Virus record (IMG/VR): IMGVR_UViG_3300047442_000001
Span: 1 to 64,000 of that record
Length of the DNA: 64,000 nt
Strand: one strand, 5' to 3'
Origin: a virus
How positions within the stretch are numbered: position 1 is the stretch's first letter; each line of letters starts with the position of its first letter. A program made the position numbers and the translations under genes. The notes beneath the pieces are model-generated. The model ran no database searches, had not been told where the DNA came from, and saw only the letters and a list, made by a program, of their open reading frames with translations. This document shows, one piece after another, positions 14,017-62,876 of the stretch.

Positions 14017-14059
14017 CGCTCGGGACACGTATGAGGTAAACATGTTGACTACGTTGTTC

Positions 14060-14089: not shown

Positions 14090-14124
14090 TGGTGACGACA
14101 GCGGACCCAGAGAGATCAGCGACG

Positions 14125-14484: not shown

Positions 14485-14497
14485 GGGGAAATTGAAC

Positions 14498-15352: not shown

Positions 15353-15363
15353 TGTGGACTTGG

Positions 15364-15510
15364 GAACGGTGCAGCCCGGCGGGTGGGATCGCCGGGCTGG
15401 TCGTAGAGAGGTTCAACTTCGAGGTCGCTTCAAGGCTCTGTGAAAAGGTCCACGTTCGGAGGGAGCAGATCCACCACTTCGTCTTCACTTCGGGCCGGGC
15501 TGCACCGTTC
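15364..15510. repeat. 17-bp perfect inverted repeat flanking 113 nt at the point where the two arms converge
   Basis: GAACGGTGCAGCCCGGC (15364-15380) and its reverse complement (15494-15510); nested 7-bp hairpin GCCCGGC/GCCGGGC at 15374-15397. Confidence 0.6.
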
Positions 15511-15535
15511 AATTTGGAATCTAGAATTGTAGCTC

Positions 15536-16168: not shown

Positions 16169-16209
16169 ATGGACTCCTTCAATTTGGACTTCGGTTCAGA
16201 CTTCGGACT

Positions 16210-16542
16210 TCAGACTTCGGTGATGGTCTCGTCGACCGCTTCGGGCTTCTCGTGGGTGATGAGGTGGAACTCGGGATCGAAGGCGGAGTCGTTGATGATC
16301 GTTTCACGTACAACTCGCCCCTTCGCCGGGTCTGTGGACACGATCGAGATCAGCTCCAGCTTGGCGGCGGCGAAGTGGGCCTTGACCGTGTTGTTGGCTT
16401 CGGGCGACGACTTGGCCCAACAGTCCACGTTCTTGATTACTACTGGCCGGACGCCGATCTGGTCGCGGCGCGGCGGACCGTAGAAGACGACTTCGACGCG
16501 AAACAGCATCGTACCGTTGGGGATGCCGGGGAGGACGTTCAT
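16210..16542 (-). CDS. hypothetical protein
   Basis: 110-aa ORF; 4-nt overlap with upstream gene. Confidence 0.55.
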   Translation of the reverse strand: MNVLPGIPNGTMLFRVEVVFYGPPRRDQIGVRPVVIKNVDCWAKSSPEANNTVKAHFAAAKLELISIVSTDPAKGRVVRETIINDSAFDPEFHLITHEKPEAVDETITEV

Positions 16543-17250: not shown

Positions 17251-17279
17251 AGAGTAGAAGTGTTGATGACTGAAGTCAA
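17251..17279 (-). promoter_or_regulatory. sigma70-type promoter TTGACT-N17-TACTCT overlapping palindrome ATGACTGAAGTCAA (17266-17279)
   Basis: Minus strand reads GTTGACTTCAGTCATCAACACTTCTACTCT; upstream CTTAAGTAACTTAGCTG is shared with the 27.8-kb promoter. Confidence 0.5.
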
Positions 17280-24569: not shown

Positions 24570-24745
24570 TACCGTTCCTTCCTGTCGCGGCGGCCGAATT
24601 TCCATAGTGCGAGCGCTCCACCAATGAACGGGATACGTCCGATCCAGCCGCCCCGCTCTGGGTACTTAGCGAGGCTGTATAGCGTCACATCTATGACTAG
24701 AGTGGCAAAGATTCCGACTACTGCCGTCCATGCTCCTGCCGTCAT
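24569..24745 (-). CDS. small 2-TM membrane protein (holin-like topology)
   Basis: Frame 24569..24811; ATG 24745 lies 8 nt after GAGGAG; two hydrophobic helices plus basic tail KFGRRDRKER. Confidence 0.45.
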   Translation of the reverse strand: MTAGAWTAVVGIFATLVIDVTLYSLAKYPERGGWIGRIPFIGGALALWKFGRRDRKER

Positions 24746-24759
24746 TTGACTGTTCTCCT

Positions 24760-25038
24760 CTACGATTGAACTTTCCTGCCGCCGAGCGCGTTGACCGCTG
24801 AATCGATCCACATGCCCACGGCCAGATTGAAGTCTGAGTCTGATTGAATCGTTCCTTGGGCCGCTTCGGACCGAAGGAGCTTAAGTAATGAAGACCGCGC
24901 CAACTTGGCGACAGTTGACGAGTGAAACTGGACAGCGGTCGTCGACAGCACGTCGCCCGCGGACTGGAACATAAGAACGGGACCGCGGTGCTTGACCGCG
25001 GCGCCCGAAGACAGAAGACGACGCCATGGGCGCTTCAC
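24760..25038 (-). CDS. hypothetical protein
   Basis: Frame 24760..25197; GTG 25038 overlaps upstream stop (GTGA) and lies 8 nt after GGAG. Confidence 0.4.
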   Translation of the reverse strand: MKRPWRRLLSSGAAVKHRGPVLMFQSAGDVLSTTAVQFHSSTVAKLARSSLLKLLRSEAAQGTIQSDSDFNLAVGMWIDSAVNALGGRKVQS

Positions 25039-26372: not shown

Positions 26373-26508
26373 TTCTGGTACCTCTCCCCTTGATCGAAGT
26401 GCTCCGGTGCCCGTCCACGTTTGCTCTGAACGTTGATAGGCTCACAGTCGCCGGACCGGCTGACCACTCGACGGCGGTATGGGCCGCGCCGCCGAGTTCC
26501 TTGACTAC

Positions 26509-26814
26509 TTAGTCGTCGTCTTCGTCGTCGTCTTCGGTGAGGGTGGCCGCGTCGGCGTTGACCGCTTCGATCGCCTGGTACTCGTCCGCCAGACGCCGGA
26601 GCGTCGCCGGGACCGTGCGACCACGGACCGCGAGACCGTCGACTTCCTTCGCGGTGCCGAGCCACTTCGATCCCATGTTCCCTTGCTCGAGCTGCTGGTC
26701 CTTCGATAAGGGGACCACGATGAAGGTGAAGCGCTTCGCCTTCGCCTTGGGCTTCGACTTCGACTTCGGTGCTGGCGCCGACTTCTGTGTTTTCGTCTTC
26801 GCTTTCGTCGTCAT
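26509..26814 (-). CDS. hypothetical protein, basic N-terminus and poly-acidic C-terminal tail
   Basis: 101 aa; N-terminal ...APKSKSKPKAKAKR, C-terminal ...TEDDDEDDD. Confidence 0.5.
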   Translation of the reverse strand: MTTKAKTKTQKSAPAPKSKSKPKAKAKRFTFIVVPLSKDQQLEQGNMGSKWLGTAKEVDGLAVRGRTVPATLRRLADEYQAIEAVNADAATLTEDDDEDDD

Positions 26815-27814: not shown

Positions 27815-27843
27815 AGAATGGCACAGGATGTGACTTCAGTCAA
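27815..27843 (-). promoter_or_regulatory. promoter TTGACT-N17-CATTCT overlapping palindrome GTGACTTCAGTCAAC (27830-27844)
   Basis: Minus strand reads CCTTAAGTTAGCTGTTGACTGAAGTCACATCCTGTGCCATTCT, inside the 314-nt gap 27651-27964. Confidence 0.45.
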
Positions 27844-28460: not shown

Positions 28461-30110
28461 CTACGTGGTTACCACCAGCGGCTCGGGAATCGACCGCACC
28501 CACACGAGTGCTTCGTTGAAACTCTTCGTTGCGTACTTGGTGGCGTATCGCGGCAGCGCCCACCGGGCGTGGTCGTCGATGACGATCACTTCGCCCCAGT
28601 CGTCAACCGAACGAACGTGCCGCCCGGCGGATTGAACTAAGGACTGCATCATCATCTTGTTTCCGACGTCCGGGTCGACTTCCTTCCTTCGTTTCATGAC
28701 CAGCGAAGTACCGTTGGGGAAGGGGAGCTTCGGAACTAATATCCAGCGGCACTGGTCGTCGGGGAAGTCTTCGCCTTGGGTGACTGAAGGCGACACCAAG
28801 ATCAGAGGCCCCTTCGGATCGCGGAACCGAAGCAGAGTTTCTTTGGTCTCGCGGCTGTCCGCATTTCCGATCATGTGTCCGCGGTACCGCGACAGCTCGA
28901 GGATACGCCGCGCGCGTTCGTAACTGACGCAGTGGATGATTCCCTTGCGGCCGAGTTCCAAGCGGCTTCGGATAGTAGCGTCGATGCGGCTGATCCACAT
29001 CCGTTCGCTGAACTCGTCCATGTGACGGTCGACGCGCACCTGAGGTTCAAGTAGAACGACGTAGACAGGTCGCCGTTGAACCGGGAACGAAGACGGGTAC
29101 TCGACGACTTCGCAACTCTGCACGGGAACGCCGAGACGGGGGAGTTCAAACTTGGACATTGTTGCGGAAAGGAATAGCACCGACTTGGCGCCGCGGTAAA
29201 GAAGCGACTCGCAACGGTCCGCCGGCCACACGGGCTCGAACTTCACCGCGTCGCGGCGGCGTACCCGGTCGAGCTCGGAGCTAACGACCCAGTCTTCATC
29301 TATGCCGCTGAGCTGAGTCAAGGACTCTTTGATCGAACGAAGGCTCGACGACAGTTTCGATACTTCCGAAGTGAGACCGGTCCGTGACACTTGACGCTTG
29401 AGCCGCTTCGAGAGGTCGACGACCAGGTCCAAAGACCGCCCCGCCCACTTCGTCCAGTCTTCGGTCGACGCCGCAACTGGGAGGACAGGAACGCCCACGG
29501 CACTTCGGAACTCGTCTGGATAAAGCGTCACGGTCAGGGCGTCGCACACCCGGTCCGCGGCGTCGTGGGATTCGTCGCACACGATGTGGTCAAAGTTCCC
29601 AAGGACCTCTTCGCTTCGCCCTGCGGCGACAGCTTTCCCGAGCGTCAGCCAAAAGGAATAGTTGGTCGACACGATCTTCGATTCCGCCGCCACCTTTACC
29701 GAGTCGAAGTAGTCGCAGCCGCCATTCAACATTGAACAGTAGATGCCACTGTGGCATGGCGCCCGGTCGACCGTCGTCCCGTGGGCTCGGTAGTGTTCTA
29801 GCCACCCTGCCGCTTTGACCGCGTTGCAGACGTAGTTCTGCTGACCGCGGACGTCGTAGAGCGAAGGGGCGAAGTCGTCGCGGTACACGTCTTCCAAGGA
29901 ACGATTGGAAGTAAGGATCAACGTGCGACCACCGTCCGAAGAGGCGAAATGAGAAGACCAAGCAAGTAGAGTTTTCCCCGAGCCCGTGGGAGCTAAGGTG
30001 AACTTGAAGCGGAAGTCAGACGCCTGAAGTCGGTACCAAGCGTCGAGCTGATCGCGGCGCCAGTCGATGAACTTGGCTGGGGCGCCCAGCGTTGAAGGAG
30101 AGAAGGTCAT
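28461..30110 (-). CDS. XPD/DinG-family (Rad3-like) DNA helicase with putative FeS-cluster Cys set
   Basis: 549 aa; Walker A APTGSGKT; DExH box IVCDESHD; four Cys between them (YVCN...APCHSGIYCSMLNGGCDYF); C-terminal GEDFPDD..ILVPKLPFP. Confidence 0.8.
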   Translation of the reverse strand: MTFSPSTLGAPAKFIDWRRDQLDAWYRLQASDFRFKFTLAPTGSGKTLLAWSSHFASSDGGRTLILTSNRSLEDVYRDDFAPSLYDVRGQQNYVCNAVKAAGWLEHYRAHGTTVDRAPCHSGIYCSMLNGGCDYFDSVKVAAESKIVSTNYSFWLTLGKAVAAGRSEEVLGNFDHIVCDESHDAADRVCDALTVTLYPDEFRSAVGVPVLPVAASTEDWTKWAGRSLDLVVDLSKRLKRQVSRTGLTSEVSKLSSSLRSIKESLTQLSGIDEDWVVSSELDRVRRRDAVKFEPVWPADRCESLLYRGAKSVLFLSATMSKFELPRLGVPVQSCEVVEYPSSFPVQRRPVYVVLLEPQVRVDRHMDEFSERMWISRIDATIRSRLELGRKGIIHCVSYERARRILELSRYRGHMIGNADSRETKETLLRFRDPKGPLILVSPSVTQGEDFPDDQCRWILVPKLPFPNGTSLVMKRRKEVDPDVGNKMMMQSLVQSAGRHVRSVDDWGEVIVIDDHARWALPRYATKYATKSFNEALVWVRSIPEPLVVTT

Positions 30111-32045: not shown

Positions 32046-32075
32046 ATCGTAACCGTTGAACGTGACTGGAGTCAA
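32046..32075 (-). promoter_or_regulatory. promoter TTGACT-N18-TACGAT overlapping palindrome GTGACTGGAGTCAAC (32062-32076)
   Basis: Minus strand reads GTTGACTCCAGTCACGTTCAACGGTTACGAT, upstream of gene 31797..31997. Confidence 0.45.
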
Positions 32076-32082
32076 CTGCGAA

Positions 32083-32109
32083 ATTGATCAATGTGTTGAC
32101 TACTTGACT
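32083..32109 (+). promoter_or_regulatory. operator/promoter cluster: palindrome ATTGATCAAT plus two TTGACT boxes
   Basis: ATTGATCAAT at 32083-32092; TTGACT at 32096-32101 and 32104-32109. Confidence 0.4.
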
Positions 32110-32157
32110 GCGTTGGATGACTCGTGTCACCATCACCGTCCGGAGAACCTAAGGTCG

Positions 32158-32604
32158 ATGCCCACTTCAGCTTCAGCCTCACTTCAGTCTTCAGCGGCCA
32201 ACTCCGGACCCAGCCACCGTGACCACGACCGCGACCGTCAACGTCAGCGTATCGTGCCACCGAAGCCGAAGCGTCCGCGCGTTCATTCTACGCGAATCGT
32301 GGAGCCGAAGTCCGGTCCCGAGCCCGCCGACGTCCGCGCCGACGCCGGAGTCGAAGAGGAACCGAAGTGCTGCTGGTGTCACGGCACTGGAGCCGAGCCC
32401 AAGATCCCCGACGTCACCGCCATCAGCCAGTCGGCGATGTCGAAGGGCACGGGCGTGTCGCCGAGCCTAGTGAGCTTGATTAACTCGGGAAAGCGAAAGA
32501 ACCCGACCTTGGACACGATGAGAAAGTTCCAGCGGTTCCTTCACGCCGAGACCGGTCAGAGGTTACCGCTGGACATTATCGCGGCGATCTTCGACGGCGC
32601 CTGA
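32158..32604 (+). CDS. HTH (XRE/Cro-like) regulator, divergent from the leftward genes
   Basis: Frame 32056..32604; the TTG 32056 start lies inside the operator, so ATG 32158 preferred; C-terminal ISQSAMSKGTGVSPSLVSLINSGKRKNPTLDTMRKF. Confidence 0.5.
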   Translation: MPTSASASLQSSAANSGPSHRDHDRDRQRQRIVPPKPKRPRVHSTRIVEPKSGPEPADVRADAGVEEEPKCCWCHGTGAEPKIPDVTAISQSAMSKGTGVSPSLVSLINSGKRKNPTLDTMRKFQRFLHAETGQRLPLDIIAAIFDGA

Positions 32605-38152: not shown

Positions 38153-38181
38153 TTCATTCGATGACTGAAGTCAACTACAAT
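38153..38181 (+). promoter_or_regulatory. divergent control site: palindrome ATGACTGAAGTCAAC (38161-38175) abutting TACAAT (38176-38181)
   Basis: TACAAT ends 7 nt before ATG 38189 and there is no SD, so the geometry is leaderless. Confidence 0.45.
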
Positions 38182-45143: not shown

Positions 45144-45347
45144 TCACTCTTTCTCGCTGTCCGGATCGTGGACATTCCGCAACTCCACGGACCATTCCCA
45201 CCAATGTCCACGCCGACACATCACCGGCCCGCTAGATACGTGCGTTGTGCTCGTGGGATCATCGAACGTGGTGCGCATCGCTGCACCGCAGTGGCACTGC
45301 GCTGCCAGATCGGCACGGATGAATCCTGCCTGCTTCGGTTGTCGCAT
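45144..45347 (-). CDS. small Cys/His-containing protein
   Basis: Frame 45144..45650; ATG 45347 lies just after the upstream stop. Confidence 0.45.
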   Translation of the reverse strand: MRQPKQAGFIRADLAAQCHCGAAMRTTFDDPTSTTHVSSGPVMCRRGHWWEWSVELRNVHDPDSEKE

Positions 45348-45352
45348 GGTGA

Positions 45353-45550
45353 CTAGTGCTCCTGCTCCGTGTCCATGGTCGCGAGCGTCATGAAGGTCGT
45401 ATGAGCGACGTAGACGTTGATTTCCTTCATTGGCACAGACACGGTACAGTCGCGCCAGACGAACGTGGAACCGTGGACGAAGGTCAATGCGTCGTGAAGG
45501 ATGATGTCGCCGCCGCCGCGTGTGAGGACCGCTGAGAAGGTGGAAGTCAT
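45353..45550 (-). CDS. hypothetical protein
   Basis: 65-aa ORF; ATGA overlap with upstream gene. Confidence 0.45.
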   Translation of the reverse strand: MTSTFSAVLTRGGGDIILHDALTFVHGSTFVWRDCTVSVPMKEINVYVAHTTFMTLATMDTEQEH

Positions 45551-45768
45551 CGCACCTCCGCCGTGAACACGTGCGTTGATTCACCCGGCACGGGAGCGGC
45601 GGTGTCCCAAACGAAACCAAGCTCCGCGCCGAGTTCCCGCCACGTGTCATTCGCGTTCTCGGCAGGTGAGCGTGGTTCCATTCCGCCCGCCACGATGTAC
45701 AGGACCGGCTGGCACGCGGCCATCAGTCGCGCGTGCTGCTCCTCTGTGAGTTTAAATTGTTTGCGCAT
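45547..45768 (-). CDS. hypothetical protein (first gene of the leftward arm)
   Basis: 73-aa ORF; GGAGGGAGAA RBS. Confidence 0.5.
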   Translation of the reverse strand: MRKQFKLTEEQHARLMAACQPVLYIVAGGMEPRSPAENANDTWRELGAELGFVWDTAAPVPGESTHVFTAEVR

Positions 45769-46068
45769 TGCGTTCTCCCTCCACCGGTTCAGTCACCGAA
45801 GCCCTTGGACTTCGGGAACTCAACTCGGCCGGCGAGCCTGTCACGCGCTCGCCGCGAGTCAGTCCTTCATGGCATCTGCCGCCGTGCTCCGTCGCCGCGA
45901 ACCGGCCCGACCATTTAGCACTTCCAACCCTAGCTCGTAGTTGGTGTCTGGTCGCCGCCCGCTGTCGCGCTAGCTACCCGCGGACCGCATGGACTGCCGA
46001 GTTTTCAATGACCTTCGGGTTGCTTCGTTGTTCGTCTGAAGTCTGAAGTAACCTGATGTACTATGACA

Positions 46069-46096
46069 ATCATATGCCTTTCTTGACTGAAGTCAA
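46069..46096 (-). promoter_or_regulatory. leftward promoter TTGACT-N16-TATGAT overlapping palindrome TTGACTGAAGTCAA (46083-46096)
   Basis: Minus strand reads TTGACTTCAGTCAAGAAAGGCATATGAT; would give a ~290-nt leader before ATG 45768. Confidence 0.5.
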
Positions 46097-46395
46097 GTGG
46101 TCGTGATGACTTTAGTCAACAATCTTCACTTCGCAAGTTATCCAAGGTGAAACCTGCTTAAGTGGTCACGTGAACGTTGACTTCTGGCGCGACCTGTGAT
46201 CCGAGTTCACTTCGCCACTTAACACTTGACTTCTGAGCCCAACGTCCGACCGAAACAGTCAACGGGACTGATACATTTTGTACCACTTAGCTACTTACTT
46301 CCACAGCCACCTCAGCGAAGATCAACCGTCCGTGCGGACGTCAACTAGTTGACATTCAACCGGTAGCACTTCGGTTACCGGTAACAGTACGCAGC

Positions 46396-46431
46396 TTGAC
46401 TACTTCGTCAACGTCTTGACTACTTAGTCAA
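46396..46431. repeat. two 16-bp inverted-repeat sites TTGACTACTT(C/A)GTCAA, 20 bp centre to centre
   Basis: 46396-46411 and 46416-46431, read directly. Confidence 0.6.
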
Positions 46432-46750
46432 CTAGCGAACGTTCCTTAGCTACTTCGGTCCCAAGCGGCCGGTCGTCCGATTGAAGGACCGTGCCGGCGC
46501 CCGAAGCAACGGACCGACGAAGCCACTAGTCAACGTGTGGACTACTTCGCTTCGGCCGCGGTCTTAGTTACTTCGGTCCTTAGCCACTTAAGGACTGAAG
46601 TCCTCCGGCCGTCCGATCCTTCGGTCCTTCGTTCCGTCCTTAAGTACTTCGGTACTTCGGTTTATTCGTTGAAGGGGTAGGTGGGCTAAGGGGCGTGGTG
46701 GGGAAGTCGCCGCCTAGAGCGCGATTTTAAAAATTCAGACGAATTGACTG

Positions 46751-46780
46751 TTGACTAGAGTCACGGTCGTACAGTAAGCT
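46751..46780 (+). promoter_or_regulatory. rightward promoter TTGACT-N18-TAAGCT, leaderless geometry
   Basis: The -10 box ends 7 nt before ATG 46788; no SD; a second TTGACT at 46744. Confidence 0.5.
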
Positions 46781-46787
46781 GCTGATC

Positions 46788-47012
46788 ATGCTGCGCAAAC
46801 ACTTCGCATCAAGTCCGTCGCTCTGGAGCACTCCACGCCACAAGTTGGACCCAACGTTCGACGCGGGCGAAGTTCGCCGCTACCTCCGCTTCGCCAGGTT
46901 GGAAGAGGACCGAAGGAAGATCACGAGACTGTTGCGACGAGCGAAGGAACACGCCGCGGCCGCGTGGCGGATCGCGCGATTGATCGAGAAGCAAGAGGAG
47001 ATGCAACGATGA
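46788..47012 (+). CDS. hypothetical basic protein (first gene of the rightward arm)
   Basis: 74-aa ORF. Confidence 0.5.
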   Translation: MLRKHFASSPSLWSTPRHKLDPTFDAGEVRRYLRFARLEEDRRKITRLLRRAKEHAAAAWRIARLIEKQEEMQR

Positions 47013-47215
47013 AACGATACTTCTGTGATGTGTGCAACACCGAAGCAGCGACTGGAGGTGCGCTACAGCAGGTCAAACTCGATATCTACAGCGGTGCCAC
47101 CGCTGCACATACCGTATTTGATAAGGACGAAGTGTGCCTGAGCTGCCGCGTGATGATCGAAGCGGTATCGAAGACGTGGAGCCCGGAGCCCAGATCGATC
47201 AATCGGTCGCAGTAA
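47009..47215 (+). CDS. small zinc-ribbon protein
   Basis: Frame 46964..47215; ATG 47009 overlaps upstream stop (ATGA); CDVC...CLSC. Confidence 0.5.
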   Translation: MKRYFCDVCNTEAATGGALQQVKLDIYSGATAAHTVFDKDEVCLSCRVMIEAVSKTWSPEPRSINRSQ

Positions 47216-47221
47216 CGAACG

Positions 47222-47518
47222 ATGAGTTCCTTCGATACTTACTTGATCCTGTGCCCTAGCTGCGGAGCTCAGCTCGAGTTCCAGACCAAAGCCCGTTACG
47301 GCTATGGCGGCAAGTTTGAATACTTCACCACTGACCCCACGATCCAGCGACCGGTCCACTCTACCGCGGTCGTCACGTTCGGCGTTCCCGAGTGGGTACG
47401 TGCGGACTTGGTGAACGATGAGCGCACGTGCCGACCGTGCGGCCGAAGAGTGAAGCTCGACGCCGAGTTGAAGCCGCTACGGATGTTGAATCGTGGAAGG
47501 AAGACCGATGGCGTTTGA
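47222..47518 (+). CDS. small zinc-ribbon protein
   Basis: 98 aa; CPSC...CRPC. Confidence 0.5.
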   Translation: MSSFDTYLILCPSCGAQLEFQTKARYGYGGKFEYFTTDPTIQRPVHSTAVVTFGVPEWVRADLVNDERTCRPCGRRVKLDAELKPLRMLNRGRKTDGV

Positions 47519-49815: not shown

Positions 49816-50058
49816 GTGGGCTACACGACCCAGCCCACCGACCACATCCTGGTCTTCGAGCTTGGCTCCTTCACCTTCGGGCTGATCTACGACCCTCGTA
49901 CACGTCTGGTGCGCCGCGCTCCACCGGTCGCGAAGAAGTGGCTCCACCGGCACATCGAAGACGCGATCGAACACTACCGCGGTCGCGGTGCGGTCATCCG
50001 TCACGAGTCCGATGAAACCATCGAGCCCTTAACCACTTCAATCAAAGTTGTTGACTGA
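49816..50058 (+). CDS. hypothetical protein
   Basis: 80-aa ORF; GTG start; its stop codon lies inside the palindrome at 50051. Confidence 0.45.
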   Translation: MGYTTQPTDHILVFELGSFTFGLIYDPRTRLVRRAPPVAKKWLHRHIEDAIEHYRGRGAVIRHESDETIEPLTTSIKVVD

Positions 50059-50080
50059 AGTCAATCGTCCGGTTTACCAT
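50051..50080 (+). promoter_or_regulatory. promoter TTGACT-N18-TACCAT overlapping palindrome TTGACTGAAGTCAA (50051-50064)
   Basis: Read directly, upstream of gene 50109. Confidence 0.45.
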
Positions 50081-50108: not shown

Positions 50109-50930
50109 ATGACCACGAAACCGAAGTCTCGATCAAAGTCGAAGTCCAAGCCGCCCGTCCAGCGTCGGAAGCCGAAGTCCAAGCTCCTTCCTTCGACTTC
50201 GACCCCGGCCGCTGCCGCGCTCGAGCTCACCCGCCACGATCTCCAGTCCACGCTCACCCCGTCCGAACGTCAGATCGTCACTTCGCTCTTCGCCGAGATC
50301 CCCCGGTCCGAGATCGTTCAACTTCTCCTCCGTTCCGCGTCTCCGACCGACGTCCACCTCTTAGCCTTAGCCAACCTTCTCAGCGACCGTGACCACGGTA
50401 CCGACGACTGGTCTTCGTTGTGCCGCTTGGCCTCCATGTCTCCGAAGCAACTGTTCGACGTGGTGATCGAAGGCTACTTCAGCGAAGGCGGTCTTCGTGC
50501 CGCGCGACGTCTTCCTTCCTTAGTCGAACACTGGCTCGACCTCGGCATGGACCGGACCGCGGACTGTGCCGCGTGCGACGGCGCCGGCTTCACTTCAGTC
50601 ACCGATCAACGGACCGGCGTCGAGAAGAAGGTCATCTGCAAATTGTGCAAGAAGGGTAAGGTTCTCGTACCCGCGAACTTGGCCGCTGCCGAGTTGGCGC
50701 TGAACTCAGTCGGCTTCGGTCGGCGCGGTCCTTCGACCGCGATCCAGATCAACAACCAGGGCTCCGGTGGCAGCAACGGTCGGCTCCAACTTACACATGG
50801 TGATCTCGGCGTCCCGGACATGGCCGACTGGTCCCGAAAAACAGACGACGTTTTCGAGGAGCGCCGGCCGGTTACGTACACCGAGCCCGAGCCCAACAAA
50901 TTCACTGAAGCGGAGGTCGTCGACTCGTGA
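50109..50930 (+). CDS. hypothetical protein with basic KSKSK N-terminus and CxxCxGxG zinc-finger motif
   Basis: 273 aa; MTTKPKSRSKSKSKPP...; CAACDGAGF...CKLCKKGK. Confidence 0.55.
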   Translation: MTTKPKSRSKSKSKPPVQRRKPKSKLLPSTSTPAAAALELTRHDLQSTLTPSERQIVTSLFAEIPRSEIVQLLLRSASPTDVHLLALANLLSDRDHGTDDWSSLCRLASMSPKQLFDVVIEGYFSEGGLRAARRLPSLVEHWLDLGMDRTADCAACDGAGFTSVTDQRTGVEKKVICKLCKKGKVLVPANLAAAELALNSVGFGRRGPSTAIQINNQGSGGSNGRLQLTHGDLGVPDMADWSRKTDDVFEERRPVTYTEPEPNKFTEAEVVDS

Positions 50931-52523: not shown

Positions 52524-52657
52524 ACCTCCCTTCAGCTTCGTCGCGCAACAGCACTCCGCCCCGTTCGTGCAGACACACTTTCGGGCTTCGGAAGTTTCCG
52601 CTGTGATCAAGTCCACACGTTGACTACTTCGCTCACTTCGGTGACGATGACGCGCAC

Positions 52658-54817
52658 GTGTACTCAGACTTAATCACCGGACGCCGGATCGCCAACTACG
52701 AACGCGTCTACCGAACGCGCCTTCGCGAAGTCCCCATCCAACGAGTCCGTCAACTCGTTGACTACCTCAACGGTCACCGGGACCACACTTCCAAGAAGGA
52801 AGTCTGGGTCCGTCCTCCAGTGACTCCGGAGTTCCGCGCCTTCATCGACAACGAGCTGGCGATGTGTAAAGCCAACTTCCTCTACTTCGCGCGCCGCTAC
52901 TGCTTCCTTCAACTCGATGGTGGCGACGGCGGTTACGGTCTCTTCGTTCCTTGGGAGTCGCAACTTCTGCTTCTCACGAAGATGGCTTCAGCGGAGGAAC
53001 ATATGTGGTTTCGCCGCGATTCCGGCGATCACGCGTTCGACGCCCTTTGCTACTTCATTCACAAAGCTCGTCAACTTGGTTTCACGGCTCTGGTCCAACT
53101 TCTCCTCCTTCACCGAGCACTCTTCTACTCGGGGTCTCGAACGATCACCGTGTCGCTCGACGACCAAAAGACCCAGGACGTCCACAAACGTCTCAGTGAC
53201 GCGTACGACAAACTCCCGTACTGGATGAAAGTGCCGATCCACCGTCAGGACGTAGAGCGTGGAAAGTGGCTCACAAACGGTTCCAAGCTCACCCTCCAGG
53301 ACTTCAGTCAGGAGTCGGGACTTGGTCAAGGTGAACAGTGGGACAACGCTCACTTGACCGAAGTCGCTGCGGTCCCCGACGAATACTGCCGCGTTGCGAT
53401 TCAGAATCACTTCATGCCCACGATCGCGCGTTCGCTCCGCGGCATGGCCTTCATGGAGTCCACGGCCCAGGGAATGGGCAACTGGTGGCACACCGTGTGG
53501 CAACTGGTCGTCGCTGAAGGTTTTGGACGCTGGCGTCCGATGTTCTGTCCGTGGTACGCGCAGCCGACGAAGTGGTCGCGGCCCGACGTCCCTTCGTTCT
53601 GGTCCCCGGACGCCGACACCCAAGCCCACGCGGCCAAGATCGCGCTCACCAGCGAACGGTGGATGGGTCGAGTTTACACGCCGACGCGTGAACAGTTGTA
53701 CTGGTGGGAGACTGAACGGGCGACGTACCGCGACACGCAAGGGCTGGGGATCTTCTACACCGACTACCCGGCGACGCCGGAGGAGTCGTTCCAGCATAGC
53801 GGCTCGGGCGCGTTCAACTCAGAGATCATTCAACTCCTCACCGACCGCGTCATCAGAAAGCCCACCGCGTACGTTCTCGGGAGCGTCAACTACGAGTCTT
53901 CAGCGCGGCGGCTGGACCGAAACGTCATCACCTTCGGCGACCAGTCCCTTATCCCCGTTCACATGACTGAACGCGACGAGGTCGACCCACGCGGCTTGGT
54001 CTTGGTCTTCGATCCACCGCGCAAAGACGTCTACTACTCGGTCGGCGGCGACCCGGCCGAAGGTATTCCGGGGTGGCATCCGAAGACGCGGATGTCGACG
54101 CCGGACGAACTCGGTCGCGACAACGCGGCGTTATCAGGCTGGTACGTTGACCCGATGTCGGGGCTCACGATGCAGGCGGTCGAATTCGCCGGCCCCGTGA
54201 CCCCGCGCGAGTTCGCCCTTTACGCCGCGGTCGTTGGCCGGTGGTTCGGTGGGCTCTACGGAAACGAGCGCGGAGCCCCTTTGGTCATCGAGATATATCC
54301 AGGTCCCGGCGGTCAAACGTACGCGCGGCTCGCGTATGAGCTCGGGTATAGCCACTTCTTCCAGTGGTCGACGTTCAACGGCTCCGAAATAAAGTTCACG
54401 AACTCGTTTGGGTTCTACTCGAGCCAGAAGTCCGTCCGGGAAGCTTGGATCAAAGCCAAGGACTTGATTGAACACAAAGACACGCTACCGGTTCGTCCTC
54501 AGTCACCGTACGTACTCTACGAGATGAGCTACGCGACTTGGGACCCGGTCCGGATGCGCGGTCAGGCGATGGGAGGCTTTCACGACGATCGTATTTCCGC
54601 GACTTTGTTCGCGCTGTGGCAGCTCCACAGTTGGCACCTTCCGCAGCAGGCACCCGCGCGCCAAGTAGGACCGCAGCCGGGGCAACCGGTTGAAGTTCCC
54701 GCCGACAAGGTGGACTTCCAGCTCCGCGACATCGCCACTACGGTGGAACTGAACAAAGCCTACGACGCGTGGTGGCGAAGGAGCGTGGCGTACGGAAACG
54801 GGAACGGTGGATGGTGA
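52658..54817 (+). CDS. terL: terminase large subunit
   Basis: 719 aa; GTG start; Walker A-like FIHKARQLGFT; Walker B-like DNAHLTEVAAV; size and position ahead of the portal-like gene. Confidence 0.8.
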   Translation: MYSDLITGRRIANYERVYRTRLREVPIQRVRQLVDYLNGHRDHTSKKEVWVRPPVTPEFRAFIDNELAMCKANFLYFARRYCFLQLDGGDGGYGLFVPWESQLLLLTKMASAEEHMWFRRDSGDHAFDALCYFIHKARQLGFTALVQLLLLHRALFYSGSRTITVSLDDQKTQDVHKRLSDAYDKLPYWMKVPIHRQDVERGKWLTNGSKLTLQDFSQESGLGQGEQWDNAHLTEVAAVPDEYCRVAIQNHFMPTIARSLRGMAFMESTAQGMGNWWHTVWQLVVAEGFGRWRPMFCPWYAQPTKWSRPDVPSFWSPDADTQAHAAKIALTSERWMGRVYTPTREQLYWWETERATYRDTQGLGIFYTDYPATPEESFQHSGSGAFNSEIIQLLTDRVIRKPTAYVLGSVNYESSARRLDRNVITFGDQSLIPVHMTERDEVDPRGLVLVFDPPRKDVYYSVGGDPAEGIPGWHPKTRMSTPDELGRDNAALSGWYVDPMSGLTMQAVEFAGPVTPREFALYAAVVGRWFGGLYGNERGAPLVIEIYPGPGGQTYARLAYELGYSHFFQWSTFNGSEIKFTNSFGFYSSQKSVREAWIKAKDLIEHKDTLPVRPQSPYVLYEMSYATWDPVRMRGQAMGGFHDDRISATLFALWQLHSWHLPQQAPARQVGPQPGQPVEVPADKVDFQLRDIATTVELNKAYDAWWRRSVAYGNGNGGW

Positions 54818-55093
54818 GTACCGCGACTTAGATCACCGGCTGAAGCGTCGAATTTCCCATCGCTTGCCGGTCCTTACTTCCTTCCATGCTCGCGATGGCG
54901 GACACCACGGGTTCCAAGGTGGAAGAAGGTCAATTAGTGAACTAAGTCGCTGCCACCACGTCAGCTCGACGATCACCACGGTAGCGCGGCCGAAGATGAC
55001 GTCGAGTACATCTCTCCTTAGCTCTTCGTCTTCGGCTTCGTTCACGCGGCGGAGTCTACACCCACCGGATGGATCGTGAATGTAGTAAACAAG

Positions 55094-55123
55094 TTGACTT
55101 TCATCTAGTCAATGCCCGATCAT
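55094..55123 (+). promoter_or_regulatory. promoter TTGACT-N18-GATCAT, leaderless geometry; TTGAC-N9-GTCAA inverted repeat at 55094-55112
   Basis: The -10 box ends 7 nt before ATG 55131; no SD. Confidence 0.45.
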
Positions 55124-56002: not shown

Positions 56003-56719
56003 ATGTCGAGACCCAACTGTGTAGTCATCGAAGGTGCTAACGGAATCGAATGGGGACCGCACGCTGCCGATTTCAATTCGGACGGCGTTCACGTGTGCCT
56101 CTACCACATTCCTTGCGTGCTCAAGGAGGGGACTACGTGGACTCTGGTCAATCTCCAAGTCCCACAGTTCGCTCTGTGCGACCGGTGTGGTGCTTCGGTC
56201 GAACGTCTGGTCGACGTCGACTTCAGCGGCGATCCCACGGTCCCCTTCTGCGCCTTCTGTCCTTCGATCGAGCGGTCCACGTTCCGGAGCGCCAACGCTC
56301 AAGTGTCCGACGCCGAAGCCACCGTCGTTGCCTTCAATCCCCGCACGGGCGACGTGGTGAACTTCGCGATGCGTAACGATCAGCCGATACCTTCAGACTT
56401 AGCCTCCAGCGGTTACGAACCCGTGCGACTGAAGCACTTCCGCCAAGTCGAACAGGTGGCTCGAGCGATGGGCGCACGGTCCGGTCGACAGGTGATTGCG
56501 GGGATCGAGACCGACAACCCGGAAGGAGTCGACGGCGACCGGTCCTTCGCTCGCGCGCGCCGCGAGCACGAAGCCCGAGTCGACGCGGCTAACCGTCAGG
56601 CCCTCGATGCTTCGCGTGAAGTTCGCCGCCGCGGAATCAAGCTTGATAAGCTCAGTTCCGAACAGCGATCAGAGATGGCCGTGGCCATCAATGAAGGCCG
56701 TGTAAGGCACAATCGCTGA
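56003..56719 (+). CDS. hypothetical protein
   Basis: 238-aa ORF. Confidence 0.55.
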   Translation: MSRPNCVVIEGANGIEWGPHAADFNSDGVHVCLYHIPCVLKEGTTWTLVNLQVPQFALCDRCGASVERLVDVDFSGDPTVPFCAFCPSIERSTFRSANAQVSDAEATVVAFNPRTGDVVNFAMRNDQPIPSDLASSGYEPVRLKHFRQVEQVARAMGARSGRQVIAGIETDNPEGVDGDRSFARARREHEARVDAANRQALDASREVRRRGIKLDKLSSEQRSEMAVAINEGRVRHNR

Positions 56720-58653
56720 TGGCGTTCGCCGAGTCGCCGCCGCAGCCTGAAGACTCCGGCTACGGTCCGCGCGGCCGGAACATGCTGGGCTTCTGCTCCG
56801 AGATGCTTCAGGAGGCGCAGAAAGTCGTTCGGTCGTGTCAAGGCTACTCGAACATCGTGCCGACGATGCAGGCCATCGCCGGAGCCAATACGTCTTCGGT
56901 CTTAGTCCCCACTGACCGTTCCCAGACGTTCGTCAACGAGATCGGCCGCAACCACGAAACGCTCCACGCCCACATGACCGACACCAAGCCTTCGGTCGAG
57001 TTCCGCACCAAGAACTCAGCCTACCAAGGTCACGCGAAGGACTTCGGCGGCATGTGGAACGTGTGGTACCTCAACCGGGCCATCGACCACAAATTCGGTT
57101 CGGTAGTCGACTACGCTTCGGTCGCCGGCTCCGGCTACGCTCATCAGCAGTGGAACAAAGCAATCAACGATTTGGACGTGGTGGCGTTCGACGGCCGGGA
57201 CTTCCTTCCTGTGAACCCCTTCGACGACACTGTTCAAAGTTGCTGGGGAGGCTTCCTTCGCCGCTTCGTTCCGCTGCCGTGGGCTCAGTCGATGTTCCCG
57301 CACATGGCGGCGCAGCTCGAGGCTGACGCTACCTACGAGCCGGCGACGGGGCTTCCTGAATTCGACCGCAACAAGGTGCTGTCGAAAGCTGACCGTGGTG
57401 CTCCCTTCTTCTCTTCTATGGCGAACACCGAAGCCGAAGAGCGAAGGAGCCAAGGAATCCGCGGAGTTCACCTGTACTGGTTCTACTTCAACGATCCCAC
57501 GGTCAACGATTCGTCCGACGTCATGTACGTCGGCGACTGGGAGAAGTCGGACAGTGGTTCCGGCTACGAAGCCCTGACCAACTATTCGTACCGTGTGAAG
57601 CCCAACCTTCCGGTGTACCCCAGAAAGCGGCTGGTGGTTCATTCAAAGACCGCCCTGTGCTACGACGGCCCGAATCACTACTGGCACGGGATGTTCCCCG
57701 TGTCCAAGTACACGATGATCCCGCTTCCGTGGTCATGGCTCGGGATGTCTCCGCTCTGGGACTGCCTTCCGCTTCAGGAGTCTCTTACCTTCGCTCTTCG
57801 CGTGCACGACGACCACGTTCGCAAGCTCACCCGTCCCCCGGTCCATGGCGGCCGCAATACGGCCGACGACGACCTTCGCAAACTTAGCGAGATGATCGCG
57901 CTGCCTGGTGCGTTCTGGAAGAACATGATGCCCGACGAGATCGGGATCGAAGTGATTCCTCCACTTGACGCTGCGGTCCCGTGGCAGATCGACTACTGCA
58001 CCCGCAAGATTGCCGAGCGCATGGGCGTGGATGCGGTCGGAGCGCTCATGGAAAAGCTCCAAGTTCCGGCCGCGGACACTTCGGACCAGTTGATGTTCGA
58101 AGGCGGCGCGTCGATGCGTCTGCGTTCGCGGCACTTGGAACGCTTCTACCGCGAACAGGGCCGCATGTTCGCGTTCAACTCGTCGCAGTTCTTCAGTGTG
58201 GGAAAGAAGTTTCGCATGATCGGTGGTGAGTCGCTCAAGCCGCAGGACTACATGGACGACACCACGTCCATCGTTCCACGTTCTGACGATGACGACCGCG
58301 ATCCGGTCGAAATCGGGACCGAGTGGGCGGATCAGTTTGATTTCTACGTTGCACAGTCTTCGCTGCTTCGCTCCGCTGCCTTAGCCGAAGTCGCAACCGC
58401 AATGGCGGCAATCCGTCTGGGCGCCATCGACCGGAGAACGTTCCTTGAGAAGCTTGACTACCAGAACGTGGAAGAGATCATGACTCGCGTCCGTGCCGAG
58501 ATGCAGGAGAAGGTAGAGATGGCCGCCGCTGTCAAAGGTGCCGGCGACCAAGTCGGTGGCATCAGACCGCTGGGCGGTGACCCGCGCGGACGCGACGCCA
58601 CGGGCACCGGAGCCCCGAGCCTCGGTGGCGACGGCTACGTTCGCAACCAGTGA
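56719..58653 (+). CDS. portal protein (putative)
   Basis: 644 aa; TGATG coupling; size and position in the terL block; no motif-level proof. Confidence 0.5.
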   Translation: MAFAESPPQPEDSGYGPRGRNMLGFCSEMLQEAQKVVRSCQGYSNIVPTMQAIAGANTSSVLVPTDRSQTFVNEIGRNHETLHAHMTDTKPSVEFRTKNSAYQGHAKDFGGMWNVWYLNRAIDHKFGSVVDYASVAGSGYAHQQWNKAINDLDVVAFDGRDFLPVNPFDDTVQSCWGGFLRRFVPLPWAQSMFPHMAAQLEADATYEPATGLPEFDRNKVLSKADRGAPFFSSMANTEAEERRSQGIRGVHLYWFYFNDPTVNDSSDVMYVGDWEKSDSGSGYEALTNYSYRVKPNLPVYPRKRLVVHSKTALCYDGPNHYWHGMFPVSKYTMIPLPWSWLGMSPLWDCLPLQESLTFALRVHDDHVRKLTRPPVHGGRNTADDDLRKLSEMIALPGAFWKNMMPDEIGIEVIPPLDAAVPWQIDYCTRKIAERMGVDAVGALMEKLQVPAADTSDQLMFEGGASMRLRSRHLERFYREQGRMFAFNSSQFFSVGKKFRMIGGESLKPQDYMDDTTSIVPRSDDDDRDPVEIGTEWADQFDFYVAQSSLLRSAALAEVATAMAAIRLGAIDRRTFLEKLDYQNVEEIMTRVRAEMQEKVEMAAAVKGAGDQVGGIRPLGGDPRGRDATGTGAPSLGGDGYVRNQ

Positions 58654-58703
58654 TCATCTGAGATCACCGCAGTCCGAGTTCAAGTTCAAAGGAGTCTCAA
58701 GTC

Positions 58704-59015
58704 ATGGCCTTCAAATCAACATCGGCAGCTTCAACCGCGGTCGACACGGCCAAGTCCCTCTACGAGCTCACCGGGGTCGACATGTTCTTCCATCTGGCTT
58801 TCTTCACAATCGACGACGCTGCCACAGGAACAGTAGCGGTGGGTGGGATCGACGTGAAGATCGCCACGAAGAAAGGTACGCCACTTCAGCCTGGACAGAC
58901 TCACCAGTGGCCCGGGACTACAGCTCCGGGTCCGTACCACACCAAACAGACGTACCTTGCGTTTGAAGTGAACGCCGCCACTGAAGCGGTGTGGATCAAC
59001 CTGCTACCGACGTGA
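58704..59015 (+). CDS. hypothetical small virion-module protein
   Basis: 103 aa; AAAGGAG RBS. Confidence 0.5.
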   Translation: MAFKSTSAASTAVDTAKSLYELTGVDMFFHLAFFTIDDAATGTVAVGGIDVKIATKKGTPLQPGQTHQWPGTTAPGPYHTKQTYLAFEVNAATEAVWINLLPT

Positions 59016-59026
59016 GGATCGAATCG

Positions 59027-60682
59027 ATGAAGAGACTACTTGTTACTTTGTCTGCTTTGTTCGTTGTCGTATCGGCGGTTGCGCAGAACTCACCCACGAC
59101 CGGACCATCGGGCTCGATCAGGTCGGGAACCACCGATCCTTCGACGTGTCGTCCTCGTGCGCTCAACGTGTTCCTCAATAGATCGGTTGTTCCTTCGGTT
59201 CTCAAGGTCTGTACAGATTCGAACACGTGGACAGCGGTCACGCTTGGCGGCATCACACAGGCTGCCGCCGATCTTCGCTATCTCAAGCTTGCTGCGGACA
59301 ATGATCCGTTGACAGGTGGGCTCAGAACGATCAACGGCACCGCGGCAACTCCGGCAATCGACTCTGCTGCCGGCGCCGGGGTCCACTTCACCTCTACCGC
59401 CTTCGGAATCGATGCCGCTGGAGTCACCACAACGATCTGTGGTGTCGGTTGCGCGGCAGGGTCCAGTGGCACCTATGCATGGACTGGTACGGCTGACGCC
59501 ACTGCCACTGCCGACTTGAAGCTGGCGCGCGGCGGCGCGAAGCTGCTCGACATTCTGGGATCATCGGCCGGTGGGCTTCGGATCGACGTCACCAACTTCA
59601 CGGCAACGCGCGCGTGGGGCTTCAACCTCGACGCGGCGGATACGTTCGTCGGGCTTGTCGGCGTGCAGACGTTGACGAACAAGACGTTGACCTCTCCGGT
59701 GCTCACCACGCCTTCGCTCGGCGTAGCAACCGCTACGACGATCAACAAAGTCACGATCACGCCGGTTGCCACATCGTCGACGCTATCGATCGCTGACGGC
59801 TTCGCGCTCGTCGTACCGGGCAATGCTACGATCAGCGGCACGAATACCGGCGACCAGTTGTCGATCTCCGGCAACGCCGGGACCGCGACCGCGCTTCAAA
59901 ACGCGCGCACGATCAACGGCGATTCGTTTGACGGCACCGCGAATATCCAGAACACGCTCGCGTCGGCGGACTTCGCGAATCAAGGCACGACGACGACCGT
60001 GTATCACGGTGCAGCGGCAGGTAATCCCTCCTTCGGTGCCGTGGTCAGCGCCGACATGAACATCACCACGACTTCATGTTCCAGCCAAGTGGTCACCGCG
60101 ATCTCGGCGGGCGGCGTGGGCACGTGTTCAGGTATCACTGGGTCGTGGGTGAGCGCCGGCACGATCGCGACGGCGCGCGGCGGCACGAACATCGACACGA
60201 GCGGTTCGACCGGCGTTCCGAAGATCGTAGCTGGCACGTGGTCAGTTACCGAAGACTGCTACGGCTCCCTCAACGCGAACTTCACGAGTTCCTCCGCTAC
60301 GCCGTCGTCGACGAACCTCACATGCAACGTGACAAGCGGCCGAACGTACGCGTTCCGAACCATTCTATTCGTGAGCGAATCGGTGGCGGCGGAAGGGATC
60401 AAGATTAACTTTAACAGTGGTCCGATCACCGCTACTGACTTCCGAGCACATTGCACCCTGTTCGATACTGCGCTTTTACTATCGGCTCAGATCTCGAGCA
60501 TCGGTTCGAGCGTCGCGCAAGCGACAATGACTGGATCAAGCATGGTCGAGTGCTACGGCTCGCTCGTTCCTTCGTCGACCGGCGCGTTCGGAATTCAGGC
60601 CGGACAGAACACCCATGCGACCGGCACCTTGACCGTGTTCCGTGGATCGCATTTCCAAGTGAAGGAGTCGAGCGCCCTATGA
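59027..60682 (+). CDS. tail-fibre-like protein with N-terminal signal-peptide-like sequence
   Basis: Frame 58991..60682; ATG 59027 after GAGGA; MKRLLVTLSALFVVVSAVA|QN; TLTNKTLTSP.. and ALQNARTINGDSFDGTANIQ resemble fibre repeat motifs. Confidence 0.65.
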   Translation: MKRLLVTLSALFVVVSAVAQNSPTTGPSGSIRSGTTDPSTCRPRALNVFLNRSVVPSVLKVCTDSNTWTAVTLGGITQAAADLRYLKLAADNDPLTGGLRTINGTAATPAIDSAAGAGVHFTSTAFGIDAAGVTTTICGVGCAAGSSGTYAWTGTADATATADLKLARGGAKLLDILGSSAGGLRIDVTNFTATRAWGFNLDAADTFVGLVGVQTLTNKTLTSPVLTTPSLGVATATTINKVTITPVATSSTLSIADGFALVVPGNATISGTNTGDQLSISGNAGTATALQNARTINGDSFDGTANIQNTLASADFANQGTTTTVYHGAAAGNPSFGAVVSADMNITTTSCSSQVVTAISAGGVGTCSGITGSWVSAGTIATARGGTNIDTSGSTGVPKIVAGTWSVTEDCYGSLNANFTSSSATPSSTNLTCNVTSGRTYAFRTILFVSESVAAEGIKINFNSGPITATDFRAHCTLFDTALLLSAQISSIGSSVAQATMTGSSMVECYGSLVPSSTGAFGIQAGQNTHATGTLTVFRGSHFQVKESSAL

Positions 60683-62787: not shown

Positions 62788-62847
62788 CTTCACCCACTGC
62801 GTTCACTTCAGTCACCGTTTACCGTCTCCGTGAATATAGTCAAGGTG

Positions 62848-62876
62848 TTGACTTCTTTCTCTGTTGTGCCCACACT
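62848..62876 (+). promoter_or_regulatory. promoter candidate TTGACT-N17-CACACT with AGTCAA-N4-TTGACT inverted repeat (62838-62853)
   Basis: Read directly in the gap after the tailspike-like gene. Confidence 0.35.

Follow-up and report, generated by a model that had tools for sequence, protein, structure and literature searches.

A candidate transcription-control region between the divergent gene arms of an uncultured podovirus-like phage

Positions 45769-46787 of the IMG/VR virus record IMGVR_UViG_3300047442_000001, of which nucleotides 1 to 64,000 were analyzed (hereafter the window), form a gene-free region, here called the hub. On balance, the hub is probably the central transcription-control region of this phage, an early/late switch at which both gene arms would start. 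This reading draws on two 14-bp palindrome classes of eight sites each, into which the half-sites of the hub resolve, on two divergent sigma-70-type promoters that can be placed in it, and on the finding that the hub is the sole place where both classes co-occur. A multi-operator master switch was one of the candidate roles listed in the initial annotation, beside a replication origin with iterons and a genome-end or packaging site, and it is the one that this sequence evidence supports. Transcription starts, early or late timing, protein binding, and the choice between repression and activation are read from sequence only. The window covers approximately 97% of the genome of an uncultured podovirus-like phage of approximately 66.2 kb.

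Palindromes and predicted promoters of the hub

The two arms diverge from the hub, the minus arm beginning at 45768 and the plus arm at 46788, with the polymerase and helicase genes on the former and the terminase and portal genes on the latter. Public gene calls leave the whole interval empty, which agrees with its description as a region free of open reading frames (ORFs) between the first genes of both arms. No other gap in the 16.7 kb covered by these calls is as long, the runner-up being 313 nt, and the longest mechanical ORF inside the hub (92 aa, TTG start) failed a GC3/GC2 codon-position filter. The claimed motif density is likewise beyond chance when the hub is compared with 1219 other 1019-nt windows of the 64-kb stretch. 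It contains 15 TTGAC/GTCAA half-sites (elsewhere mean 2.41, standard deviation 1.49, maximum 6; Poisson P ~5e-8), 13 TTGACW/WGTCAA hexamers (mean 0.75), and 10 inverted repeats whose arms are 6 nt or longer (1.7 in the controls), and none of the 1219 control windows equals it on any of these three counts.

The boxes, GTCAAC sites, perfect palindromes, and A/T patch that the initial annotation had read off are all present (Table 1), and the repeat finder TRF agrees on both tandem repeats. One hairpin, GGCGAGC/GCTCGCC, stands where it had been placed (45831-45853), and the other, CCGAAG/CTTCGG, lies at 45796-45815, 1 nt off the 45797-45816 first given. Repeat richness held for one family only in part: the repeats based on ACTTCGG/CTTCG partly reflect a genome-wide bias. 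The window has 83 copies of ACTTCGG where 12.4 are expected, and 752 of CTTCG/CGAAG over both strands where base composition predicts approximately 138 (5.4-fold); the latter motif exceeds codon-shuffled controls in all three frames and on both strands (215 vs 89; 244 vs 100). The plus-strand CTTCG count of the hub (15) is equalled or exceeded in 31 of the 1219 control windows. ACTTCGG repeats as hub-specific iterons were rejected as the main signal, the motif being enriched genome-wide in all reading frames.

Type I palindromes, TTGACT-NN-AGTCAA, number eight at no more than one mismatch, against 0.14 expected. In every one of them, the perfect TTGACT half shares the strand of the genes in the flanking arm, and most have a TAnnnT hexamer 16-18 nt downstream, ahead of a gene start. 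All are confined to the hub and the early/replication part of the genome. Such sites have the appearance of sigma-70-type promoters, the −35 element of which would be the left half of a dyad centered near −29; the palindrome covers the −35 and spacer at the leftward promoter (P_L), at the rightward promoter (P_R), and at 50051. The 14-mer at 50051, upstream of the gene at 50109, is identical to the palindrome at 46083-46096. The second type I site on the left side of the hub, 23 nt upstream of the first, may be an auxiliary site. Each of the five type I palindromes outside the hub is intergenic (17266-17279, 27830-27843, 32062-32075, 38161-38174, and 50051-50064), and they are probably early or middle promoters. 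CTTAAGT(A)ACTTAGCTGT precedes those at 17266 and 27830.

P_L is the only match to the sigma-70 consensus (that of E. coli) in 45300-47300, at 10 of 12 positions, and its −35 lies within the perfect type I palindrome at 46083-46096. Its predicted start would leave a GC-rich 5′ leader for the leftward operon, and the leftward leader of ~290 nt in the initial annotation is consistent with a promoter at 46096-46069. The leader RNA folds at −117.3 kcal/mol (z = −2.1), and Rfam, searched with the hub, yielded no family; its single match, to a snoRNA, scored 20.5 bits where the gathering score is 39 (E = 1.2) and is put down to chance. P_R has its −35 inside the type I palindrome 46751-46764, with an additional TTGACT at 46744. 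Since the ATG lies 7 nt past the −10, the first right-arm gene appears leaderless. The consensus scan missed P_R because its −10 matches TATAAT at only three of six positions. However weak by that measure, the layout of TAnnnT, 6-10 nt, and ATG is also found in six relatives (loci L002, L003, L012, L033, L034, and L047).

Type II palindromes, GTCAAC-NN-GTTGAC, often with TA on both flanks, also number eight, against 0.27 expected; three are in the hub and five upstream of plus-arm (structural/late) genes. In the four plus-arm sites that carry one mismatch, the right half GTTGAC is always intact and reads as a −35. The −10 hexamers at the type II sites of the window are poor, which suggests activator dependence, while several sites in L003 and L034 have good −10 hexamers 17-18 nt past the right half. 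Sites of this class stand 27-65 nt upstream of terminase, portal, and other structural genes in L003, L034, and L002, and L005 has a further one in its structural region. Counted over the relatives fetched, five have the motif ahead of structural genes. Type II is a candidate late-promoter or activator motif of the lineage. Longer words are shared as well: the hub 17-mer 46527-46543 is the reverse complement of 52610-52626, and the 12-mer 46540-46551 is identical to 52622-52633, both directly upstream of the terminase gene. Among the relatives, hub copies occur in L035 (three at 1419-1525), L005 (4558-4611 and 5638), and L002 (one), those at L035 1419 and 1512 and at L005 5638 being 14-mers identical to the hub site GTCAACTAGTTGAC.

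In the proposed mechanism, a host sigma-70-type RNA polymerase would start both arms at the hub. P_L would drive the leftward arm, small early genes and then the replication genes, through the structured leader of ~295 nt, and P_R the rightward arm, small early genes and then the terminase and structural genes, with the first gene beginning at or within 1 nt of the transcript 5′ end. As both −35 TTGACT hexamers are the left half of a type I palindrome, a dimer bound at about −29 would occlude RNA polymerase, and since type I also stands at five other early/replication promoters, one regulator could shut the whole early set. At the type II sites outside the hub, the right half would serve as the −35 and the left half would lie at about −45 to −40, just upstream, a geometry that fits an activator-dependent promoter. 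The type II copies in the hub may allow a late regulator to act on the early promoters, or may titrate it there. The A/T patch would act like an UP element, and the G-rich box (G-box) ~75 nt upstream of the −35 would be a conserved accessory element.

Table 1. Features of the hub, the two palindrome classes, and the recognized genes (window coordinates unless a relative's locus is named).
Feature	Position	Strand	Remarks
P_L, predicted	46069-46096	minus	−35 TTGACT (46096-46091), 16-nt spacer, −10 TATGAT (46074-46069)
Putative ~295-nt GC-rich 5′ leader	45769-46062	minus	predicted start ~46062 to ATG 45768; strong Shine-Dalgarno GGAGGGAG; hairpins 45796-45815, 45831-45853
P_R, predicted	46744-46790	plus	−35 TTGACT (46751-46756), 18-nt spacer, −10 TAAGCT (46775-46780), ATG 46788
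Type I sites	17266, 27830, 32062, 38161, 46083, 46106, 46751, 50051
Type I TTGACTGAAGTCAA, perfect	46083-46096		overlaps P_L −35 and spacer
Type I ATGACTTTAGTCAA	46106-46119	minus	TTGACT perfect on minus strand
Palindrome GGACTGAAGTCC, perfect	46592-46603		type I core GACTGAAGTC, outer bases altered
Type II sites in hub	46340, 46407, 46529
Type II GTCAACTAGTTGAC, perfect	46340-46353
Type II GTCAACGTGTGGAC	46529-46551	plus	right flank TACTTCGCT
Type II sites outside hub	14036-14049, 52611-52624, 52749-52762, 55085-55098, 62839-62852		upstream of plus-arm (structural/late) genes; 52611 and 52749 before terminase
Type II sites upstream of structural genes in relatives	L003 4213, 6397, 7082, 8469, 13859; L034 12155, 12501, 19110; L002 9952
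TTGAC(T/A) boxes	46083, 46177, 46226, 46349, 46396, 46416, 46744, 46751
GTCAAC sites	46115, 46258, 46340, 46407, 46427, 46529
Two orphan boxes sharing TTGACTTCTG	46177, 46226 (46177-46237)	plus	degenerate type I look; no −10 hexamer
Palindrome GTTACCGGTAAC, perfect	46374-46385
Palindrome GGTTACCGGTAACC	46373-46386
20-nt-period half-site array	46387-46440	plus	TTGAC-N6-GTCAAC-N2-CTTGAC-N6-GTCAAC-N2-GCGAAC
Two imperfect ~120-135-nt units	46407-46485, 46529-46620	plus	type II site with GACTACTT, then CTTAGYTACTTCGGTCC, then CCGGYCGTCCGAT
Tandem GTCTGAA x2	46034-46047
Tandem GTACTTCG x2	46644-46659
G-box ATTCGTTGAAGGGGTAGGTGGGCTAAGGGGCGTGGTGGGG	46664-46703	plus	family-conserved, G-quadruplex-prone
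A/T patch ATTTTAAAAATT	46724-46735		near-palindromic; about −64 to −53 of P_R; UP-element-like
Family A DNA polymerase	17288-20554	minus	PHROG match
Helicase	28461-30110	minus	PHROG match
Terminase large subunit	52658-54817	plus	PHROG match
Portal	56719-58653	plus	PHROG match
SU10-type adaptor	2317-3396		profile match

The conserved right-hand module and the phage lineage

The hub was recovered from eleven relatives, with terminase identities from 58% down to 35%, and the rightmost ~130 nt of it can be aligned in 8 phages and seen in 12 over that range. The order of this module is G-box, A/T patch, −35 palindrome, −10, and ATG. In most phages the A/T patch lies 20-35 nt past the G-box, with the −35 5-24 nt further on, usually within TTGACT-N2-3-AGTCA, and after the TAnnnT hexamer the ATG follows 6-10 nt later in most. 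A profile of the module gives one match per locus and none elsewhere. The G-box follows the family pattern ATTCGTTG..AAGGGGTRGG..GGGG and has a G4Hunter score of 1.92, the top of the 64-kb window; it is also the top peak in L033, L047, and L050. The distance from GGGGT to the −35 is kept at 69-84 nt. The G-box is a conserved element without a described counterpart. The A/T patch is kept as AATTTTnAAAATT or an A-run in the relatives in which it is recognizable, 5-24 nt before the −35. An IMG/VR pattern scan for patch plus palindrome, which was set aside, returned 20 loci, mostly A/T-rich, none of which shares proteins with the window.

Two observations concern the right-hand module in single relatives. 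In L002, the first right-arm gene (4546-5001, ~150 aa, Cys-rich) starts 7 nt past the −10 and is absent from the public gene calls, probably owing to the lack of a ribosome-binding site. Gene calling may systematically overlook leaderless first genes across the lineage. In L035 (1856-2260), the hub contains about five copies of the 8-mer GTTAGTCG, which takes the place of TTGACT at the right-promoter −35; this suggests that promoter and regulator specificity shifted together.

The phage itself is most likely a lytic-type, podovirus-like phage of ~66 kb from soil, the SU10-type adaptor match pointing to a podovirus-like virion. A 66,225-bp Logan contig (SRR26077936_511) carries the exact terminase protein of the window, and the terminase call of a 66,322-bp JGI contig is 100% identical, though shorter (665 aa). 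If the usual assembler k values are assumed, these lengths minus end overlaps of 30 and 127 nt both give 66,195 bp, and this shared reduced size suggests a cyclic assembly graph, as expected of terminally redundant genomes. PHROGs gave a named function for only four of the approximately 50 window proteins scanned (polymerase, helicase, terminase, and portal), and only one of approximately 50 had a Pfam match above the curated cutoff. A nucleotide search with the hub against 50,697 phage records found no match.

Among isolates, the best terminase matches are those of Tunturiibacter phages Tunturi 1 and 2, at approximately 25% identity; both are acidobacterial podoviruses of 63 kb (PMC11924767). 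An IMG/VR single-protein search with the window terminase returned nothing, a terminase profile search of IMG/VR returned only relatives at 20-41% identity, and a metagenome scan yielded only one further usable hub locus. No prophage relative was found in the GTDB genomes, and thus a host could not be assigned. Divergent arms around a gap of 277-1019 nt are present in all eight relatives whose contigs reach this position and in the isolate Tunturi 1 as well. The gene-free gap in Tunturi 1 (L036, PP887698) measures 495 nt (58546-59039) and lies ~4 kb upstream of the terminase gene with the same divergent layout, a clue to the host range of the lineage and to its type of virion; the G-box of Tunturi 1 is vestigial only.

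The genes that flank the hub are small and not conserved among the relatives, and a Pfam search with ten of the flanking proteins gave no match passing the curated cutoff and nothing at E ≤ 0.01. Small genes without a family or conservation fit fast-evolving early genes. At the far end of the plus arm, downstream of the type II site at 14036-14049, four plus-strand ORFs (14077-14484, 14492-14830, 14834-15352, and 15349-15543) have a third-position GC of 0.68-0.82, and the arm probably runs to ~15540 rather than ending at 14016; the minus-strand ORF 14116-14808, which overlaps them, is doubtful.

Base composition shows further peculiarities. The CTTCG excess is peculiar to the window phage (observed/expected 5.4, against 0.9-3.2 in the eleven relatives), and on the plus strand CTTCG exceeds CGAAG over most of the genome regardless of gene direction; DNA modification, a binding motif, and mutational bias are possibilities. 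Several 6-bp palindromes fall below the Markov expectation (observed/expected GGATCC 2/38, TTCGAA 16/68, CAGCTG 10/31, and TGATCA 30/60), as does CTAG (72 observed vs 161 expected), which looks like restriction-site avoidance.

The central part and the competing readings

Between the promoter-linked sites, the hub holds a pair of orphan boxes, a half-site array, and two repeat units (Table 1). The first orphan box is overlapped by an imperfect inverted repeat (46158-46175/46205-46222, 83% complementary). The array contains the type II site 46407-46420, with degenerate copies at 46387 and 46427; TRF describes it as a 20-nt unit repeated 1.9 times at 46395-46432 with 94% matches, and one more degenerate copy stands on each side. 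The repeat families of the two longer units have spacings of 118-136, and their 17-mer repeat exists in two perfect and two degenerate copies, all zero-mismatch matches lying within the hub. The internal TTGAC boxes were rejected as promoters after a manual check found no TAnnnT 16-19 nt downstream of any of them. The central part may provide extra binding sites for the regulator or regulators of both promoter classes.

Three further repeats were noted elsewhere in the window. CTTAAGCTCCTTCGGTCCGAAGCGGCC, at 24859-24884 (minus) in the ~290-nt non-coding minus-arm gap 24745-25035, is in sense orientation and matches the hub repeat AGCTACTTCGGTCCCAAGCGGCC (46448-46470) at 21 of 23 positions. CTTGACTACTTAGTC at 26500-26514 is identical to 46415-46429. 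Between the minus genes 15536-16168 and 16210-16542, three copies of GACTTCGG lie within 33 nt (16188-16220).

Several points weigh against a transcription-control region as the full account of the hub. No cognate DNA-binding protein was recognized among the ten flanking proteins by Pfam. Types I and II consist of the same 5-mer half-site in opposite arrangement, so that one dimeric protein could not read both, and two regulators are implied. Measured against the E. coli consensus, P_R has a weak −10, which fits only TAnnnT. The deep conservation of the G-box is left unexplained by the promoter model because the box lies beyond the reach of RNA polymerase. In addition, no −10 accompanies the type II sites of the hub or two of its TTGACT boxes, leaving ~600 nt (46120-46720) loosely explained, and hubs of 277-440 nt suffice in relatives, with no hub type II site in L012, L033, or L034. 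The short hubs and these three loci indicate that the central cluster is accessory and lineage-variable, not essential.

Candidates for the regulators lie at a distance. The initial annotation had spoken of ribbon-helix-helix and helix-turn-helix (HTH) proteins; none was confirmed beside the hub, and only a weak HTH_3 match was found, 14 kb away. It belongs to ORF 32056-32604 (plus strand, probable start near 32158), the C-terminal part of which weakly resembles a Cro/CI-type HTH (Pfam HTH_3, E = 0.002). The ORF also weakly matches an immunity repressor in PDB (E = 0.08), lies on the opposite strand to its neighbors, and has a type I (32062) and a type II-like site (32087) upstream. This ORF is a candidate regulator. 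The conserved 273-aa protein at 50109-50930 was also tried as a regulator, and its relatives show only a DnaJ-type zinc-finger signature. An arrangement of N4-like hairpin promoters with a virion RNA polymerase was dropped: the 1502-aa protein considered for it had no match in PDB or to a polymerase family, and only a weak match to a carbohydrate-binding module.

The G-box brings in a different proposal, that the hub holds the physical genome ends, as a short direct terminal repeat or a cleavage/packaging signal, with G-box and A/T patch read by the terminase. The promoters would then simply enter the cell first at each end, and this function may coexist with promoter function. We regard it as unlikely. 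The module is kept down to 35-39% terminase identity when the neighboring genes are not, so that its conservation follows that of proteins such as the terminase. In L004, the closest relative, the contig breaks off 14 nt left of the G-box, and the L009 contig starts ~80 nt left of its own. However, contig breaks are expected anyway at a repeat-rich, hypervariable region, and seven long contigs of 58.6-70.8 kb (the source together with L002, L034, L035, L046, L047, and L050) cross the hub. The presumed reduction of both assemblies to 66,195 bp fits a terminally redundant genome, the phage has an SU10-type adaptor, and the equivalent long region of phage 7-11 is formed by its genome ends (PMC4331800). 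On the other side, the fixed distance from G-box to −35 speaks for a link with the promoter, 5.9 kb separate the hub from the terminase gene, and the terminase profile matched only the ATPase domain of T4 gp17 in PDB, giving no hint of the packaging type. A narrower version, in which G-box and A/T patch (46664-46735) are the cis-acting genome-end or packaging signal of the lineage, possibly via a G-quadruplex, instead of a promoter accessory, is given equally little credence. If true, the hub would represent the junction between the two ends of a terminally redundant podovirus genome, with inward-facing early promoters and regulator arrays on either side of it. The soil-phage lineage in question counts Tunturi 1 and 2, both acidobacterial, among its distant members.

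A replication origin at 46340-46620, with the phased 20-nt array and its dispersed copies as iterons and the promoters or A/T patch aiding opening, is less probable still. The hub does resemble iteron origins, such as the phage lambda ori and those of iteron plasmids, in its repeats of ~20 bp in a two-helical-turn phase, its repeat dyads, and its single copies near promoters: half-sites alternate every 9-11 bp over 46396-46440 on one helix face, a unit of ~125 nt is duplicated, and long-hub relatives each have a private repeat (GTTAGTCG in L035, GTACG in L002). The phage also encodes a T7-like set of family A polymerase and helicase, and T7-like replisomes can use promoter-linked origins. Still, the origin with iterons put forward in the initial annotation was not supported. 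Set against a threshold of at least three tandem direct repeats of 17-22 bp in helical phase, the array has 1.9 clean copies plus a degenerate one on each side, and its motif is not private to the hub, as it also precedes the terminase and other structural genes in this phage and in relatives. There is no adjacent A/T unwinding block; the only A/T patch, of 12 nt, is 290 nt away within the conserved promoter module. Cumulative GC skew runs straight through the hub without a turn, negative on both sides. No initiator-like gene was recognized nearby in the scans of flanking proteins, the replication genes are 16-28 kb distant, and three relatives have no such hub cluster at all.

Transcription of the central part into one or more small non-coding RNAs, with the duplicated units as a possible source, or into a long structured right-arm leader is very unlikely. 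The CTTAGYTACTTCGGTCC repeats do lie ~34-38 nt downstream of the type II site start, near the start point if these sites fire, and a related element of 23-27 nt sits in sense orientation in the non-coding gap at 24859-24884. Strand asymmetry over 46001-46750 (14 CTTCG vs 3 CGAAG on the plus strand) points the same way, but this asymmetry spans most of the genome. No Rfam family was matched, fold z-scores of the central part are modest and alike on both strands (−2.4 and −1.75), the internal −35-like boxes are not followed by −10 hexamers, and the region is unalignable in the relatives.

Known control regions and significance of the hub

For the preferred reading of the hub as a transcription-control region, the closest description appears to be the long intergenic region of phage 7-11, which is phiEco32-like: it lies between divergent gene clusters, carries clustered phage-specific promoters, and is made of the genome ends (PMC4331800). 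The class-specific late promoter motifs of 7-11 have been validated by primer extension (PMC8948821). In both phages, two clusters diverge from an unusually long non-coding region, a motif is clustered there and recurs upstream of late genes, early genes have host sigma-70 promoters (predicted in the window phage), and the virion is of podovirus type, here judged by the adaptor match. However, no phage sigma factor was found in the window phage, and the motifs are unrelated, being 14-bp palindromes on a host-like −35 TTGAC in the window, GTAAtg-16-aCTA in 7-11, and tAATGTAtA in phiEco32. The window phage also stands apart in its terminase, which is at best ~25% identical to those of known isolates.

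The closest mechanistic analogue may be the early/late switch region of Bacillus phage phi29, in which the promoters A2c, A2b, and A3 and multiple p4/p6 sites occupy ~220 bp. Several dyad sites for one regulator allow the early promoters to be repressed and the late one to be activated, and replication is protein-primed from the ends by a family B polymerase. As in phi29, the control region of the window phage would separate an early, replication operon that runs leftward from a late, structural operon that runs rightward. The hub differs in its length of ~1 kb, in the family A polymerase of its phage, in that no p4-like protein was identified, and in a right arm that opens with early-type genes and an early-type promoter.

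Parts of the hub have their own counterparts. Class II activator promoters of the CRP/FNR type carry a 5-N4-5 dyad over the −35, centered at −41.5, the FNR/FixK box being TTGAT-N4-ATCAA. Type II, read as GTCAA-N4-TTGAC, has the same spacing, overlaps the −35, and is followed by poor −10s. In contrast, its half-sites are in the opposite arrangement, its right half is itself a consensus −35, its center would fall at about −38 to −40 of the predicted starts, and no CRP/FNR-family protein was found. The UP element of rrnB P1 is an A/T tract with a canonical position of −57 to −38. The A/T patch is similarly a tract directly upstream of the −35, its position kept in relatives with a recognizable patch, but it lies slightly further upstream in the window, at about −64 to −53, and its near-palindromic form (ATTTTnAAAAT) means that it could equally be a protein site.

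The hub is thus a new instance of a familiar kind of control region with motifs of its own, and not a new kind of biology. For a lineage that is nearly unannotated, the hub and the palindromes of both classes offer predictions of early versus late genes and of transcript start points. The two predicted regulators could be fished out with palindrome DNA (TTGACTGAAGTCAA and TAGTCAACTAGTTGACTA). The conserved right-hand module, chiefly its G-box, anchors one genomic position among soil phages that are otherwise unalignable, and is a concrete candidate for a packaging, genome-end, or G-quadruplex signal.

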